Positions 1,174 through 42,963 of a DNA stretch of 64,000 nt are shown piece by piece; position 1 is the stretch's first letter; each line of letters starts with the position of its first letter. The DNA is taken from assembly GCF_003334305.1 (NCBI RefSeq), contig NZ_QOWS01000004.1, one strand, 5' to 3'. A program made the position numbers and the translations under genes. The stretch is from Escherichia coli. GTDB taxonomy: Bacteria > Pseudomonadota > Gammaproteobacteria > Enterobacterales > Enterobacteriaceae. Below the pieces are notes generated by a model. The model did not search any database and had not been told where the DNA came from. It saw only the letters and a program-made list of their open reading frames with translations.

Positions 1174-3804
1174 TTATTGCAATTTCGCGCTGACCCAGCC
1201 TTTCACACTGGCTAACGCTGCAGGTAAGGCCGCAGCATCCGTACCACCGGCTTGCGCCATGTCAGGACGTCCACCACCCTTGCCGCCCACCTGCTGAGCG
1301 ACCATACCAATCAGTTCCCCTGCTTTCACACGATCTGTGACGTCCTTAGATACGCCTGCAATCAGAGAAACCTTACCTTCGGCTACCGTTGCCAGCACGA
1401 TAATTGTCGACCCCAGCTGATTTTTTAAATCGTCAACCATGGTACGCAACATTTTCGGCTCAACACCGCTAAGCTCGCTAACCAACAGCTTAACACCATT
1501 AACATCAATTGCCTTACTGGAAAGATTTGCGCTCTCCTGTGCGGCAGCTTGTTCTTTAAGCTGTTGTAGTTCTTTTTCTAACTGACGCGTACGTTCCAGT
1601 ACTGAGCGCACTTTATCCGCCAGATTATTGCTATCGCCTTTCAGCAGATGCGCGACTTCGCTTAAGCGATCGCTGTCTGCATGAACGGTGGTGATAGCGC
1701 CTTCTCCGGTTACCGCTTCGATACGACGAACGCCTGCAGCAGTACCCGATTCAGAGATGATGCGGAACAGACCAATATCACCAGTGCGGCTGGCGTGAGT
1801 ACCGCCACACAGCTCGGTGGAGAAATCGCCCATGCTCAGCACGCGTACACGCTCATCATACTTCTCGCCGAACAGCGCCATCGCACCTTTCGCTTTCGCC
1901 GCTTCGAGATCCATGATGTTGGTTTCGATCGGCAAATTGCGACGAATCTGTGCGTTCACCAGGTCTTCGACCGCACGAATCTCTTCCGGTTTCATCGCTT
2001 CGTTGTGTGAGAAGTCGAAGCGCAGCACCTTGTCGTTAACCAGTGAACCTTTCTGCGATACATGAGTCCCCAGAACCTGGCGCAGCGCAGCGTGCATCAG
2101 GTGCGTTGCGGAGTGATTCAGACGAATACGGGCGCGACGAGCCTCATCAACATCAGCCTGCACAGCGTCGCCCACTTTCAGAGAACCCGCAGCAAGTTTA
2201 CCGATGTGACCAATCGCCTGGCCGTATTTCTGCGTATCTTCCACCGCGAAGGAGAAGTTAGCGCCTTTCAGTTCGCCTTTATCACCAACCTGACCGCCGG
2301 ATTCCGCATAGAATGGTGTTTGATCCAGCACGACCACAGCTTCCTGGCCTGCATTGATGGCATCAACCGCTTTACCATCAACAAACAGCGCGGTCACTTT
2401 GCCGTTCAGTTCCAGATGGTCATAGCCTTTAAATTCAGATGCACTATCAACACGGATCATTGCGTTGTAATCGGCACCAAAGCCGCTGGCTTCGCGCGCG
2501 CGACGACGCTGCTCTTCCATTGCTGCTTCAAAACCAGCTTCGTCAACTTTGATGTTGCGCTCACGACAAACATCAGCCGTCAGGTCAACCGGGAAGCCAT
2601 AGGTGTCGTACAGACGGAAAGCCGTTTCACCATCCAGCGTATCACCAGAAAGTTTTGCCAGCTCTTCATCCAGCAACGCCAGACCGCGCTCCAGAGTACG
2701 GGCAAACTGCTCTTCTTCAGTCTTCAGCACCTGCTCAACCTGCGCCTGCTGGCGTTTCAGGTCTTCACCCGCAGAGCCCATAACGTCGATCAGCGGACCA
2801 ACCAGTTTGTAGAAGAAGGTTTCTTTCGCGCCGAGCATATTGCCGTGACGCACTGCGCGACGAATGATACGACGCAGTACATAACCACGGTTTTCATTGG
2901 ACGGCATTACGCCATCCGCGATCAGGAACGCACAAGAACGAATGTGGTCAGCGATTACGCGCAGCGATTTATTGCTCAGATCGGTCGCGCCAGTGACTTT
3001 CGCTACCGCCTGGATCAACGTGCGGAACAGGTCGATGTCATAGTTAGAGTTAACGTGTTGCAGCACCGCAGCAATACGCTCCAGACCCATACCGGTATCT
3101 ACAGACGGCTTCGGCAGCGGTTCCATCGTGCCATCTGCCTGGCGGTTGAACTGCATGAAGACGATGTTCCAGATCTCAATGTAGCGGTCGCCGTCTTCTT
3201 CCGGACTTCCCGGAGGGCCACCCCAAATGTGGTCGCCGTGATCGTAGAAGATTTCGGTGCACGGGCCGCACGGACCAGTGTCACCCATCTGCCAGAAGTT
3301 GTCAGATGCGTATGGCGCACCTTTGTTATCGCCGATGCGAATAATACGTTCGCGCGGGATCCCGACTTCTTTTTCCCAGATTTCGTAGGCTTCGTCGTCG
3401 CTTTCATAGACGGTAACCCACAGACGCTCTTTCGGCAGGGCAAACCATTTTTCGCTGGTCAGCAGTTCCCATGCAAACTGAATGGCATCGTGTTTGAAAT
3501 AGTCGCCGAAGCTGAAGTTGCCCAGCATTTCGAAGAAGGTATGGTGACGCGCGGTGTAACCGACGTTTTCCAGGTCGTTGTGTTTACCACCCGCACGCAC
3601 GCAGCGTTGGGAAGTGGTAGCGCGGGAATAATTACGCTTGTCGAGCCCAAGGAACACATCCTTGAACTGGTTCATCCCGGCGTTGGTAAACAACAAAGTT
3701 GGGTCGTTATGGGGTACCAGGGAGCTGCTGGCAACTACCTGATGTCCCTTACTATGGAAAAAGTCGAGAAACGCCTGACGGATCTCAGCGGTGCTCTTGC
3801 TCAT
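1174..3804 (-). CDS. alaS: Alanine--tRNA ligase
   Basis: ORF track 876 aa, starts [24 protein letters not shown]; class II aaRS; position downstream of recX. Confidence 0.97.
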
Positions 3805-3931
3805 AATTATCCTGAAATCAAGCTAACGAAATATCGCCACCAGCTCCAGCGTGTCTTAACCGCCGGGCTGGTAACTGAAAAGTGGGAATAAGATAAGTTT
3901 TCTTGACTGGGAAGTAAAATACCGTATGCGT

Positions 3932-4432
3932 TCAGTCGGCAAAATTTCGCCAAATATCCTGGATATCTTCCATCAGATAGCCACGATAGAGCAGAAAACG
4001 CTGGATCTTAACTTTTTCTGAAAAGACAGTTGGCAAAGGTTCACCATATTTTCGCGTCGCCTGATCGCGCGCCAGTGCGCACCAGTCGATGTCACATTCA
4101 CGCATCGCTTTTTCTGTCGCTTCGCGGGAAATACCTTTCTGATTCAGTTCCTGACGAATACGTGCAGGTCCATAACCTTTGCGGCTACGGCTGGCGATAA
4201 AGCGCGCAACAAATCGGCTGTCATCGAGATAGCCATGTTCATGGCACCAGGCAATAACGCGCTCGTAATCTTCTGCCGTAGCATCAATCTCTTCTGGGCC
4301 ATTTTTGCCCATAATCGGTGCCGCGAGTTTACGTCGCAGTTCTTGCTCACTGTGATCGCGCACCGCCAGAATGCGTACCGCACGATCCAACAGGCGAGCA
4401 TATGCCGGGCGACGGGACGTTGATTCTGTCAT
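3932..4432 (-). CDS. recX: RecA regulator RecX
   Basis: ORF track 166 aa, [36 protein letters not shown]; immediately downstream of recA on same strand. Confidence 0.95.
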
Positions 4433-4449
4433 GGCATATCCTTACAACT

Positions 4450-4480
4450 TAAAAAAGCAAAAGGGCCGCAGATGCGACCC
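4450..4480 (-). terminator. Rho-independent terminator hairpin between recA and recX
   Basis: Inverted repeat gggccgcagatgcgaccc (4463-4480) followed on the minus strand by a U-rich run (uuuugcuuuuuu). Confidence 0.6.
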
Positions 4481-4594
4481 AGGTTTTGCTGATAAACAGA
4501 TTTAATAGTCAATGAGTGTGCAGAATGTTCCCGCAGGCCCAATTCGTTAGAGGATCGAGGTGAGAGTAATTTTTCACGCCAGTGCTGGCCTGTT

Positions 4595-4631
4595 CCCCTC
4601 ACCCTAACCCTCTCCCCAAAGGGGCGAGGGG
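4595..4631. repeat. GC-rich imperfect palindromic intergenic element (cccctcaccctaaccctctcccc aaa ggggcgagggg)
   Basis: Visible inverted symmetry CCCCTC...GAGGGG around an AAA centre; lies in extra recA-recX intergenic DNA; resembles enterobacterial boxC-type repeats (identity is inference). Confidence 0.45.
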
Positions 4632-4674
4632 ACCGTCCGTGCACACATTATCTATTATCATCAATAACGAACGA

Positions 4675-5815
<1,141 letters not shown>

Positions 5816-33158: not shown

Positions 33159-33282
33159 CAGGCATTCCTCAGGTGATTGTCATTTTTGACGAAAACATGC
33201 CGATGAAATGTCATTTTCGACACTCATCGACACGCCCATCCCCAAACAGGCGTAACGCCTGCAAAACGGGCAAAGCCTCAGC

Positions 33283-37646: not shown

Positions 37647-39725
37647 ATGTCATATACACCGATGAGTGATCTCGGACAGCAAGGGTTGTTCGACATCACT
37701 CGGACACTATTGCAGCAGCCCGATCTGGCCTCGCTGTGTGAGGCTCTTTCGCAACTGGTAAAGCGTTCTGCGCTCGCCGACAACGCGGCTATTGTGTTGT
37801 GGCAAGCGCAGACTCAACGTGCGTCTTATTACGCATCGCGTGAAAAAGACACCCCCATTAAATATGAAGACGAAACTGTTCTGGCACACGGTCCGGTACG
37901 CAGCATTTTGTCGCGCCCTGATACGCTGCATTGCAGTTACGAAGAATTTTGTGAAACCTGGCCGCAGCTGGCCGCAGGTGGGCTATACCCAAAATTTGGT
38001 CACTATTGCCTGATGCCACTGGCGGCGGAAGGGCATATTTTTGGTGGCTGTGAATTTATTCGTTATGACGATCGCCCCTGGAGCGAAAAAGAGTTCAATC
38101 GTCTGCAAACATTTACGCAGATCGTTTCTGTCGTCACCGAACAAATCCAGAGCCGCGTCGTTAACAATGTCGACTATGAGTTGTTATGCCGGGAACGCGA
38201 TAACTTCCGCATCCTGGTCGCCATCACCAACGCGGTGCTTTCCCGCCTGGATATGGACGAACTGGTCAGCGAAGTCGCCAAAGAAATCCATTACTATTTC
38301 GACATTGACGATATCAGTATCGTCTTACGCAGCCACCGTAAAAACAAACTCAACATCTACTCCACTCACTATCTTGATAAACAGCATCCCGCCCACGAAC
38401 AGAGCGAAGTCGATGAAGCCGGAACCCTCACCGAACGCGTGTTCAAAAGTAAAGAGATGCTGCTGATCAATCTCCACGAGCGGGACGATTTAGCCCCCTA
38501 TGAACGCATGTTGTTCGACACCTGGGGCAACCAGATTCAAACCTTGTGCCTGTTACCGCTGATGTCTGGCGACACCATGCTGGGCGTGCTGAAACTGGCG
38601 CAATGCGAAGAGAAAGTGTTTACCACTACCAATCTGAATTTACTGCGCCAGATTGCCGAACGTGTGGCAATCGCTGTCGATAACGCCCTCGCCTATCAGG
38701 AAATCCATCGTCTGAAAGAACGGCTGGTTGATGAAAACCTCGCCCTGACCGAGCAGCTCAACAATGTTGATAGTGAATTTGGCGAGATTATTGGCCGCAG
38801 CGAAGCCATGTACAGCGTGCTTAAACAAGTTGAAATGGTGGCGCAAAGTGACAGTACCGTGCTGATCCTCGGTGAAACTGGCACGGGTAAAGAGCTGATT
38901 GCCCGTGCGATCCATAATCTCAGTGGGCGTAATAATCGCCGCATGGTCAAAATGAACTGCGCGGCGATGCCTGCCGGATTGCTGGAAAGCGATCTGTTTG
39001 GTCATGAGCGTGGGGCTTTTACCGGTGCCAGCGCCCAGCGCATTGGTCGTTTTGAACTGGCGGATAAAAGCTCCCTGTTCCTCGACGAAGTGGGCGATAT
39101 GCCACTGGAGTTACAGCCGAAGTTGCTGCGTGTATTGCAGGAACAGGAGTTTGAACGTCTCGGCAGCAACAAAATCATTCAGACGGACGTGCGTCTAATC
39201 GCCGCGACTAACCGCGATCTGAAAAAAATGGTCGCCGACCGTGAGTTCCGTAGCGATCTCTATTACCGCCTGAACGTATTCCCGATTCACCTGCCGCCAC
39301 TACGCGAGCGTCCGGAAGATATTCCGCTGCTGGCGAAAGCCTTTACCTTCAAAATTGCCCGTCGTCTGGGGCGCAATATCGACAGCATTCCTGCCGAGAC
39401 GCTGCGCACCTTGAGCAACATGGAGTGGCCGGGTAACGTACGCGAACTGGAAAACGTCATTGAGCGCGCGGTATTGCTAACACGCGGTAACGTGCTGCAG
39501 CTGTCATTGCCAGATATTGTTTTACCGGAACCTGAAACGCCGCCTGCCGCAACGGTTGTCGCCCAGGAGGGCGAAGATGAATATCAGTTGATTGTTCGCG
39601 TGCTGAAAGAAACCAACGGCGTGGTTGCCGGGCCTAAAGGCGCTGCGCAACGTCTGGGGCTGAAACGCACGACCCTGCTGTCACGGATGAAGCGGCTGGG
39701 AATTGATAAATCGGCATTGATTTAA
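37647..39725 (+). CDS. fhlA: Formate hydrogenlyase transcriptional activator FhlA (sigma54-dependent)
   Basis: ORF track 37611..39725; start at MSYTPMSDLGQQGLFDITRTLL, 692 aa; GAF domains + AAA+ ([14 protein letters not shown]) + HTH. Confidence 0.93.
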   Translation: MSYTPMSDLGQQGLFDITRTLLQQPDLASLCEALSQLVKRSALADNAAIVLWQAQTQRASYYASREKDTPIKYEDETVLAHGPVRSILSRPDTLHCSYEEFCETWPQLAAGGLYPKFGHYCLMPLAAEGHIFGGCEFIRYDDRPWSEKEFNRLQTFTQIVSVVTEQIQSRVVNNVDYELLCRERDNFRILVAITNAVLSRLDMDELVSEVAKEIHYYFDIDDISIVLRSHRKNKLNIYSTHYLDKQHPAHEQSEVDEAGTLTERVFKSKEMLLINLHERDDLAPYERMLFDTWGNQIQTLCLLPLMSGDTMLGVLKLAQCEEKVFTTTNLNLLRQIAERVAIAVDNALAYQEIHRLKERLVDENLALTEQLNNVDSEFGEIIGRSEAMYSVLKQVEMVAQSDSTVLILGETGTGKELIARAIHNLSGRNNRRMVKMNCAAMPAGLLESDLFGHERGAFTGASAQRIGRFELADKSSLFLDEVGDMPLELQPKLLRVLQEQEFERLGSNKIIQTDVRLIAATNRDLKKMVADREFRSDLYYRLNVFPIHLPPLRERPEDIPLLAKAFTFKIARRLGRNIDSIPAETLRTLSNMEWPGNVRELENVIERAVLLTRGNVLQLSLPDIVLPEPETPPAATVVAQEGEDEYQLIVRVLKETNGVVAGPKGAAQRLGLKRTTLLSRMKRLGIDKSALI

Positions 39726-39734
39726 CTGCAAATT

Positions 39735-39758
39735 GCCGGACAGATCTGCCTGTCCGGC
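39735..39758. terminator. Hairpin between convergent fhlA and ygbA (gccggacag-atctgc-ctgtccggc)
   Basis: Perfect 9-bp inverted repeat in the 36-bp gap between the two stop codons. Confidence 0.6.
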
Positions 39759-39761
39759 ATA

Positions 39762-40115
39762 CTATTCACGAGGTTTTTTCGGACGATATTTTTCCGGCAG
39801 TTCTGGCACCGGACGCTTGTCATCGATGAGATGACGCACGGTTAAGATCGGATGACGCCACAGCATTCTCGGCCCGGCCCAACGCATAATCTGTTTCATC
39901 TCTTCACGCTTTGCAGGCTGGTAACAGTGCACCGGACACTGCTTACAGGCTGGTTTCTCTTCGCCGAACACACATTTATCCAGCCGCTTTTGCGCGTAAA
40001 CAAACAACGCCTCGTAATGCTCCGGCTCCGCTGACGCCTGCGGGCATTTCGCTTGATAAAGATCGATCATTTTTTTAATCGTCAGTTTTTCACGAGAGAT
40101 ACGCTTGCCGGACAT
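39762..40115 (-). CDS. ygbA: Nitrosative-stress-induced protein YgbA
   Basis: ORF track 117 aa MSGKRISREKLTIKKMIDLYQAKCPQASAEPEHYEALF. Confidence 0.9.
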   Translation of the reverse strand: MSGKRISREKLTIKKMIDLYQAKCPQASAEPEHYEALFVYAQKRLDKCVFGEEKPACKQCPVHCYQPAKREEMKQIMRWAGPRMLWRHPILTVRHLIDDKRPVPELPEKYRPKKPRE

Positions 40116-40132
40116 GCTGCCTCCACCTCATT

Positions 40133-40155
40133 AAGATGTATTTATATTACATCTT
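40133..40155. promoter_or_regulatory. NsrR-type operator-like palindrome upstream of ygbA (aagatgtatttatattacatctt)
   Basis: 8-nt perfect inverted arms AAGATGTA / TACATCTT about 18 nt upstream of the ygbA start; ygbA is a known NsrR target. Confidence 0.6.
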
Positions 40156-40401
40156 AATCTTAAAGGGCACTATGACTCTAAAGAAGAAAGGTTCGCCAAC
40201 CGACGCAATTTTGCGTACTTGCTTCATAAGCATCACGCAAAAGCTGCAAAACAGCATCTTTCCCGGAACCAGCATCAAGAACTCACCGTTCGCTTCTTCC
40301 CCTGAAATGATTAACTCCGGTATCATGTGCGCCTTATGTGATTACAACGAAAATAAAAACCATCACACCCCATTTAATATCAGGGAACCGGACATAACCC
40401 C

Positions 40402-42963
40402 ATGAGTGCAATAGAAAATTTCGACGCCCATACGCCCATGATGCAGCAGTATCTCAGGCTGAAAGCCCAGCATCCCGAGATCCTGCTGTTTTACCGGATG
40501 GGTGATTTTTATGAACTGTTTTATGACGACGCAAAACGCGCGTCGCAACTGCTGGATATTTCACTGACCAAACGCGGTGCTTCGGCGGGAGAGCCGATCC
40601 CGATGGCGGGGATTCCCTACCATGCGGTGGAAAACTATCTCGCCAAACTGGTGAATCAGGGAGAGTCCGTTGCCATCTGCGAACAAATTGGCGATCCGGC
40701 GACCAGCAAAGGTCCGGTTGAGCGCAAAGTTGTGCGTATCGTTACGCCAGGCACCATCAGCGATGAAGCCCTGTTACAGGAGCGTCAGGACAACCTGCTG
40801 GCGGCTATCTGGCAGGACAGCAAAGGTTTCGGCTACGCGACGCTGGATATCAGCTCCGGGCGTTTTCGCCTGAGCGAACCGGCCGACCGCGAAACGATGG
40901 CGGCAGAGCTGCAACGCACTAATCCGGCGGAACTGCTGTATGCAGAAGATTTCGCCGAGATGTCGCTGATTGAAGGCCGTCGCGGCCTGCGCCGTCGCCC
41001 GCTGTGGGAGTTTGAAATCGACACCGCGCGCCAGCAGTTGAATCTGCAATTTGGCACCCGCGATCTGGTCGGTTTTGGCGTCGAGAACGCGCCGCGCGGA
41101 CTTTGTGCTGCCGGTTGTCTGTTGCAGTATGCGAAAGATACCCAACGCACGACCCTGCCGCATATTCGTTCTATCACCATGGAACGTGAGCAGGACAGCA
41201 TCATTATGGATGCCGCGACACGTCGTAACCTGGAAATTACTCAGAACCTGGCGGGCGGTGCGGAAAATACGCTGGCTTCTGTGCTCGACTGCACCGTCAC
41301 GCCGATGGGTAGTCGTATGCTGAAACGCTGGCTGCATATGCCAGTGCGCGATACCCGCGTGTTGCTTGAGCGCCAGCAAACTATTGGCGCATTGCAGGAT
41401 TTCACCGCCGAGTTGCAGCCGGTACTGCGTCAGGTCGGCGACCTGGAACGTATTCTGGCACGTCTGGCTTTACGAACTGCTCGCCCACGCGATCTGGCCC
41501 GTATGCGCCACGCTTTCCAGCAACTGCCGGAGCTGCGTGCGCAGTTAGAAACTGTCGATAGTGCACCGGTACAGGCGCTACGTGAGAAGATGGGCGAGTT
41601 TGCCGAGCTGCGCGATCTGCTGGAGCGAGCAATCATCGACACACCGCCGGTGCTGGTACGCGACGGTGGTGTTATCGCATCGGGCTATAACGAAGAGCTG
41701 GATGAGTGGCGCGCGCTGGCTGACGGCGCGACCGATTATCTGGAGCGTCTGGAAGTCCGCGAGCGTGAACGTACCGGCCTGGACACGCTGAAAGTTGGCT
41801 TTAATGCGGTGCACGGCTACTACATTCAAATCAGCCGTGGGCAAAGCCATCTGGCACCCATCAACTACATGCGTCGCCAGACGCTGAAAAACGCCGAGCG
41901 CTACATCATTCCAGAGCTAAAAGAGTACGAAGATAAAGTTCTCACCTCAAAAGGCAAAGCACTGGCACTGGAAAAACAGCTTTATGAAGAGCTGTTCGAC
42001 CTGCTGTTGCCGCATCTGGAAGCGTTGCAACAGAGCGCGAGCGCGCTGGCGGAACTCGACGTGCTGGTTAACCTGGCGGAACGGGCCTATACCCTGAACT
42101 ACACCTGCCCGACCTTCATTGATAAACCGGGCATTCGCATTACCGAAGGTCGCCATCCGGTAGTTGAACAAGTACTGAATGAGCCATTTATCGCTAACCC
42201 GCTGAATCTGTCGCCGCAGCGCCGTATGTTGATTATTACCGGCCCGAACATGGGCGGTAAAAGTACCTATATGCGCCAGACCGCACTGATTGCGCTGATG
42301 GCCTACATCGGCAGCTATGTACCGGCACAAAAAGTCGAGATTGGACCTATCGATCGCATCTTTACCCGCGTAGGCGCGGCAGATGACCTGGCTTCCGGGC
42401 GCTCAACCTTTATGGTGGAGATGACTGAAACCGCCAATATTTTACATAACGCCACCGAATACAGTCTGGTGTTAATGGATGAGATCGGGCGTGGAACGTC
42501 CACCTACGATGGTCTGTCGCTGGCGTGGGCGTGCGCAGAAAATCTGGCGAATAAGATTAAGGCATTGACGCTGTTTGCCACCCACTATTTCGAGCTGACC
42601 CAGCTACCGGAGAAAATGGAAGGCGTCGCCAACGTACATCTCGATGCGCTGGAGCACGGCGACACTATCGCCTTTATGCACAGCGTGCAGGACGGCGCGG
42701 CGAGCAAAAGCTACGGTCTGGCGGTTGCTGCTCTGGCGGGCGTACCGAAAGAGGTTATTAAGCGCGCACGGCAAAAACTGCGTGAGCTGGAAAGCATTTC
42801 GCCGAACGCCGCCGCTACGCAAGTGGATGGTACGCAAATGTCTTTGCTGTCCGTACCAGAAGAAACTTCGCCTGCGGTCGAGGCACTGGAAAACCTGGAC
42901 CCGGATTCACTGACTCCGCGTCAGGCGCTGGAGTGGATTTATCGCTTGAAGAGTCTGGTGTAA
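40402..42963 (+). CDS. mutS: DNA mismatch repair protein MutS
   Basis: ORF track 853 aa [40 protein letters not shown]; Walker [10 protein letters not shown]. Confidence 0.97.

Follow-up and report, generated by a model that had tools for sequence, protein, structure and literature searches.

NsrR is described in the literature as an iron-sulfur repressor of the Rrf2 family that senses nitric oxide. The regulon known from E. coli K-12 includes hmp, ytfE, hcp-hcr, yeaR-yoaG and ygbA, and the strongest operators of the family, those of ytfE and hmp, share a 23-bp inverted repeat with AAGATG...CATCTT ends. Since 2006, ygbA has been accepted as part of the NsrR regulon in E. coli and Salmonella, and its operator is already known and catalogued. 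In E. coli, repression of ygbA by NsrR goes back to Bodenmiller and Spiro (2006, as cited in PMC5320621 and PMC2884951), and for K-12 the gene is referred to as NsrR-regulated and as bound in ChIP-chip, as cited in PMC5320621. Likewise, the expression of ygbA is increased 31.8-fold in an nsrR mutant of Salmonella (PMC2884951). Rodionov (2005; PMC1274295) presented the motif gATGyAT-N5-ATrCATc, with which the box described below is compatible; the same paper cites a communication from Spiro on hmp, ytfE and ygbA. In strain CFT073, which belongs to phylogroup B2, ygbA was among the genes most highly upregulated in a triple mutant when anaerobic nitrate-grown cultures were studied by RNA-seq (PMC5320621), and a 23-bp NsrR site was predicted at this gene (PMC5320621, Table 4). 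Nevertheless, ChIP-seq in CFT073 revealed no NsrR peak at ygbA, a result that its authors call a probable false negative; the same paper states that K-12 and CFT073 have identical NsrR sequences (PMC5320621).

The palindrome upstream of ygbA

The DNA analysed here, referred to as the window, is a stretch of 64 kb (64,000 nucleotides) from E. coli. The coding sequence of ygbA, the regulated gene, occupies 39762-40115 on the minus strand and specifies 117 aa, in agreement with the RefSeq annotation. Its product scores 274 bits against the NCBIfam equivalog NF007713, "nitrous oxide-stimulated promoter family protein", for which the cut-off is 234. The neighbouring genes are fhlA, which ends at 39725, and mutS, located at 40402-42963 on the plus strand. 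The nsrR gene is absent from the 64-kb window; E. coli encodes NsrR outside this stretch.

The spacer between ygbA and mutS contains a 23-bp palindrome, AAGATGTATTTATATTACATCTT (the same box may be written aagatgtatttatattacatctt), at 40133-40155, and 17 nt separate it from the ATG of ygbA. The box, which has no strand of its own, is an 11-1-11 inverted repeat that reads AAGATGTATTT-A-TATTACATCTT on the plus strand and AAGATGTAATATAAATACATCTT on the ygbA strand, and it conforms to the 23-bp 11-1-11 pattern AAGATGCATTT-N-AAATGCATCTT of NsrR operators. A re-reading of the window reproduced exactly the box sequence, its coordinates and the 286-bp region (40116-40401) that had been given in the first-pass annotation, where the distance to the ygbA start, put at about 18 nt, also agrees with our count. 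That annotation described perfect inverted arms of 8 nt; these 8 nt are indeed perfect, but the true perfect length is 11 nt, since the arms ATTAAGATGTA (40130-40140) and TACATCTTAAT (40148-40158) are perfectly inverted, with 7 nt in between. The full perfect palindrome of the window allele, again without strand, therefore covers 40130-40158.

A motif scan with an NsrR weight matrix had been proposed as a check on the identity of the box. The matrix used here was derived from 25 distinct published sites (Table 4 of Mehta et al. 2015, PMC5320621), with the ygbA site excluded, and was made symmetric. When the 64-kb window was scanned, the ygbA box ranked first with 23.1 bits, a value that is mid-range among the training sites (12.6-32 bits). 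In 200 shuffled windows the mean maximum was 13.1 bits, and none of the 200 reached the score of the box. The match is also unique by a simpler measure: when up to three mismatches to the consensus AAGATGYATTTNAAATRCATCTT were allowed, the only match on both strands of the 64 kb was the ygbA box, with two mismatches, where 0.01 matches were expected. The match to the NsrR motif at 40133-40155 is thus far beyond chance. The matrix scan, the conservation across 80 loci presented below and the literature all support the earlier proposal that this is an NsrR-type operator and that ygbA accordingly belongs to the nitrosative-stress NsrR regulon.

The second-best match of the matrix in the window, AACATGCCGATGAAATGTCATTT at 33194-33216 (16.9 bits), lies in the spacer between hycA and hycB, and about 35 nt separate it from the hycB start. 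It is identical to the hycB site of CFT073 that has a ChIP-seq peak (Mehta et al. 2015, Table 4; PMC5320621), and as a published ChIP-seq site it serves as a positive control for the matrix scan.

Compared with the described operators, the element in the window is the same as that of K-12, at the same gene and in the same position; the K-12 derivative RP437 has an identical box with identical flanks, and sequence differences are found only elsewhere in the spacer. The ygbA site of CFT073, AAGGTGCATTTATATTACAACTT, is orthologous to the window box, from which it differs neither in position nor in its 11-1-11 architecture; however, it carries substitutions at positions 4, 17 and 20, is less symmetric and reaches 20.9 bits, versus 23.1 bits for the window box. 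The ytfE operator, in contrast, is near the ideal consensus with 32 bits, whereas one half of the ygbA box is degraded toward a -10 sequence (GTAATA instead of GCATTT).

Conservation of the box and a predicted ygbA core promoter

The comparative set consisted of 80 ygbA loci, with one genome per species, from about 20 enterobacterial genera. These include Escherichia, Citrobacter, Salmonella, Klebsiella, Raoultella, Enterobacter and Kluyvera, as well as Lelliottia, Leclercia, Phytobacter, Pluralibacter, Trabulsiella, Rahnella and others. When the 200 nt preceding ygbA are considered, the best matrix match is 12-21 nt away from the ATG in every one of the 80 loci, and in 79 of them the ygbA box is the best match of the whole locus of approx. 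3.3 kb. Boxes scoring at least 14 bits were found in 71/80 loci, while none of 255,238 other positions reached this value; at a threshold of at least 12 bits the corresponding figures are 75/80 boxes and 2 of 255,238 other positions. The box is therefore conserved with ygbA in the Enterobacteriaceae at a fixed position, and accompanies this gene through at least 20 enterobacterial genera, whichever gene is its neighbour; this adds to what had been catalogued for the operator.

An information profile anchored on the box revealed that, apart from a short yTG motif, conservation in the 70 nt before ygbA is confined to the box. Within the box, positions 1, 2, 6, 7, 8, 11, 12, 16-19, 22 and 23 carry 1.4-2.0 bits each. 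Upstream of it, only the yTG at box coordinates -17 to -15 is conserved; -15 is G in 73/81 sequences, and -17 is a pyrimidine (T or C) in 78/81. On the ygbA strand, box positions 7-12 read TAnnAT in 79/81 sequences; T7, A8 and T12 never vary, and the hexamer occurs as TATTAT (52), TAAAAT (8), TAATAT (7) and TAGAAT (7).

A separate observation concerns two loci in which the box has decayed, to 3.9 bits in an Enterobacteriaceae MAG (L065) and to 8.4 bits in Kosakonia sp. (L068), the AAG...CTT ends being kept in both. This may reflect loss or retuning of the NsrR control in those lineages.

No ygbA promoter was called by a sigma-70 consensus scan of 39700-40500 at a threshold of 9 of 12 positions, and for this reason the promoter was deduced from conservation. 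A generic scan misses it because the -35 matches the consensus at two of six positions. Our search of the literature found no mapped start site for ygbA, and ygbA is not among the entries of the start-site supplement of Kim et al. (2012). Given the TAnnAT within the box and the yTG located 17 nt upstream, the putative -10 hexamer was assigned to TAATAT (40144-40149, minus strand; box positions 7-12), whose TAnnAT form is conserved in the orthologues, and a weak -35 hexamer to TAGTGC (40167-40172, minus strand), 17 nt upstream of the -10. Transcription is predicted to start at the A in position 40137 of the minus strand, 7 nt after the -10, a placement that follows from the position of the -10 itself. 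The leader from this predicted start (about 40137) would be approx. 22 nt long, and it includes a Shine-Dalgarno sequence, GGAGG, at 40120-40124 on the minus strand, as read directly from the sequence. With this predicted -10/-35 geometry the box overlaps the core promoter, as is expected of an NsrR operator, and would span roughly from -18 to +5 of the ygbA promoter, a geometry suited to steric repression.

The two halves of the box are unequal. The strong NsrR half-site, AAGATGTATTT (40133-40143, plus strand), lies on the side of the ygbA promoter that is nearer to the predicted start, and scores 14.5 bits with a half-site matrix, which finds just three positions with at least 12 bits in the 64-kb window. 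The weaker half-site, AAGATGTAATA (40145-40155, minus strand), carries the putative -10 hexamer and scores 6.9 bits; it departs from the NsrR consensus exactly at the -10 positions. In the orthologues, T7 is invariant and A11 near-invariant in the half that bears the -10, whereas in the opposite half position 7 is C or T and position 11 is T or A. The unequal half-sites fit a dual role, as -10 and as half-site, that makes one half weak. From the sequence, a further point can thus be proposed for this operator, namely that it is embedded in the core promoter and combines the -10 and half-site codes.

The explanation that best accounts for the palindrome is that it is the operator by which NsrR acts on the ygbA promoter, excluding RNA polymerase, and that it is a feature of ygbA and not of mutS; we regard this as very probable. 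According to this model, a dimer of holo-NsrR would bind the 11-1-11 inverted repeat at 40133-40155. Since the box contains the -10 (40149-40144) and the predicted start (about 40137), bound NsrR would cover both, and RNA polymerase would be physically excluded. Nitric oxide would then nitrosylate the cluster, NsrR would leave the DNA and ygbA would be transcribed. The occlusion geometry is a prediction to the same degree as the exact assignments of the -10, the -35 and the start site, from which it derives. Beyond annotation, the significance of this assignment is small.

Divergent mutS and other readings of the palindrome

In Escherichia, ygbA and mutS share a single spacer, of 286 bp in the window, and the first-pass annotation pointed out that the operator sits close to mutS control sequences. 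The mutS promoter is indeed located in this spacer; nevertheless, its start site is 173 bp from the edge of the box. Chen and Gottesman placed the mutS start at -74 and identified an Hfq ARN motif and ArcZ pairing as control elements of the leader (PMC5580658). Computed from the ATG at 40402, the start at -74 (PMC5580658, Figure 4 legend) defines a mutS 5' leader at 40328-40401 on the plus strand, outside the NsrR unit. The start predicted for ygbA stands back to back with that of mutS, at a distance of approx. 191 bp, so a coupling through supercoiling is conceivable. It could be argued from this arrangement that the box is a shared bidirectional operator through which NsrR also controls the divergent mutS, tying NO stress to mismatch repair; such a role is highly unlikely. 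The mutS start lies about 184 bp downstream from the centre of the box, and the spacer contains no second full NsrR site. The other half-site-like match, at 40250-40260 (8.6 bits), corresponds to the chance density of such matches, which the window contains at 0.83 per kb, and the B2 allele has a changed sequence there. The known control of mutS is post-transcriptional and resides in its leader (PMC5580658), and the word "mutS" has no occurrence in the text of the NO/NsrR study of CFT073 (PMC5320621).

The comparison among loci bears directly on this issue. mutS is found within 1.5 kb upstream of ygbA in 25/80 loci, those of Escherichia, with a spacer of approx. 285 bp, and those of Enterobacter, Lelliottia and Leclercia, with a spacer of approx. 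520 bp. The other 55 loci, from Citrobacter, Salmonella, Klebsiella, Kluyvera and others, lack mutS within this distance of ygbA, but the box is kept unchanged. Given that the box is retained whether or not mutS adjoins, the operator belongs to ygbA, and its proximity to mutS is a lineage-specific accident, without evidence of function. The remark on mutS in the first-pass annotation thus holds as loose geometry alone, and nothing ties the operator to this gene: the known control elements of mutS lie in the 74-nt leader, a second NsrR site is lacking and the box persists in loci without mutS. Accordingly, a third point that can be added to the description of the operator is that the sequence gives no support for NsrR control of mutS.

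The distribution of mutS among the loci agrees with the history of the locus that has been reported, in which ygbA together with sitABCD is ancestral, and sitABCD was lost in Escherichia (PMC7232297). It can be imagined that this loss set ygbA back to back with mutS, and that a burst of ygbA transcription released by NO might alter the mutS promoter 190 bp away, for example by local negative supercoiling. If true, nitrosative stress would be coupled to the capacity for mismatch repair, but we give this idea very little credence.

Concerning mutS itself, the loci of Enterobacter, Lelliottia and Leclercia (a subset of L032-L084) share a block, TTTTTTCATGCGACAATAG, that is strongly conserved and lies at about 80 to 62 nt before the mutS ATG. 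At the equivalent place Escherichia has GGTATCATGTGCGCCTTATG, which includes the published mutS start at -74. The TTTTTTCATGCGACAATAG/GGTATCATGTGCGCCTTATG block probably represents the core promoter of mutS, which has diverged between these two groups.

Another possibility is that the palindrome acts as RNA, either as a stem-loop in a longer ygbA leader or as the terminator of an upstream ORF, so that ygbA would be controlled after initiation. When the region is transcribed whole it folds as an 11-bp hairpin, and a stretch of 63 nt has a folding energy of -20.1 kcal/mol (z = -4.3); in addition, an ORF annotated by PGAP (40147-40326, minus strand) ends inside the box. However, among 65 distinct boxes the complementarity of the arm pairs equals the expectation from column composition, that is, the arms do not covary, and this argues for a protein site over an RNA hairpin. 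The typical box has 6-8 of 11 complementary pairs, the window allele being unusually symmetric with 9, and the pair formed by positions 7 and 17 is mostly T:G at the DNA level. The covariation analysis therefore places the constraint on the half-sites and not on base pairing between the arms, as is expected of an NsrR operator. Likewise, no run of T follows the stem, a terminator scan made no call, and no Rfam family matched in 39700-40500 at E values up to 1. If transcription begins at the predicted start, which lies inside the palindrome, the RNA would contain just one of the two arms. As for the upstream ORF, it matches no family, and other E. coli strains have it truncated or frameshifted or lack it. 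Altogether, an RNA function is even less probable than a shared operator.

It is just as hard to believe that the box is an AT-rich core promoter that is palindromic by chance, or a site for IscR, Fur or FNR with a coincidental likeness to the NsrR motif: the region is AT-rich and a -10 alone would explain the TAnnAT part of the conservation, but NsrR-specific positions that have no promoter role (A1, A2, G6, T16, G17, C18, A19, T22 and T23) are conserved at 1.4-2.0 bits, an independent NsrR matrix picks out the box in 79/80 loci, and genetic data, as recounted in PMC5320621 and PMC2884951, put the gene under NsrR. With regard to IscR, FNR and Fur, direct reading of the sequence found no GACT/AGTC type-1 core, no TTGAT-N4-ATCAA site and no Fur-box repeat, respectively.

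Operator alleles within E. coli

The 401 bases around the NsrR box are 100% identical to those of strain M8 and 98.5% identical to those of K-12 derivatives. Of 5426 complete E. coli genomes, 5420 have a match to this 401-bp query, 2111 contain the exact 41-mer that surrounds the window box and 1087 the B2-type 41-mer. Among the Escherichia alleles sampled, the box varies solely at position 4 (A or T), positions 16-17 (TA, TG or CA) and position 20 (T or C), all of which are degenerate positions of the motif. The perfect 11-nt arms are therefore a property of one allele, the K-12/M8 type. A fourth point to be added is thus that E. coli has several alleles of this operator, which differ in predicted strength. 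The perfect palindrome of the K-12 type and the imperfect one of the B2 type may differ in NsrR occupancy, and this may explain why a ChIP-seq peak was absent in CFT073.

The ygbA-mutS spacer (40116-40401) is unusually polymorphic in E. coli: 1536 genomes are just 90-95% identical to the window over the 401 bp. The differences concentrate in the ygbA-proximal half of the spacer.

The ORF at 40147-40326 on the minus strand is annotated by RefSeq/PGAP in strain M8 as a "hypothetical protein" of 59 aa, and its stop codon falls inside the NsrR box. It has 44 aa in the sampled K-12, O157 and C2 strains, is frameshifted in 2017.09.02CC and is not called in the B2 strain M22546; a search of NCBIfam gave no match for it. 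This ORF is probably an annotation over-call.

Two loci differ from the window in the surroundings of ygbA. In E. coli A2, from platypus (L004, NZ_CP028772.1; locus 3200-4935), an IS3 element is located approx. 130 bp upstream of ygbA and is directly followed by a truncated truD. The segment mutS-pphB-...-rpoS-nlpD-pcm-surE is missing from this locus and the NsrR box is kept; this isolate may be a natural deletion strain for mutS and rpoS. In the B2 strain M22546 (L003, locus 1-283), the gene of a TOBE-domain (ModE-like) protein lies directly downstream of ygbA, in the place where the window has fhlA; this position of the TOBE-domain gene is a feature of B2-type E. coli.
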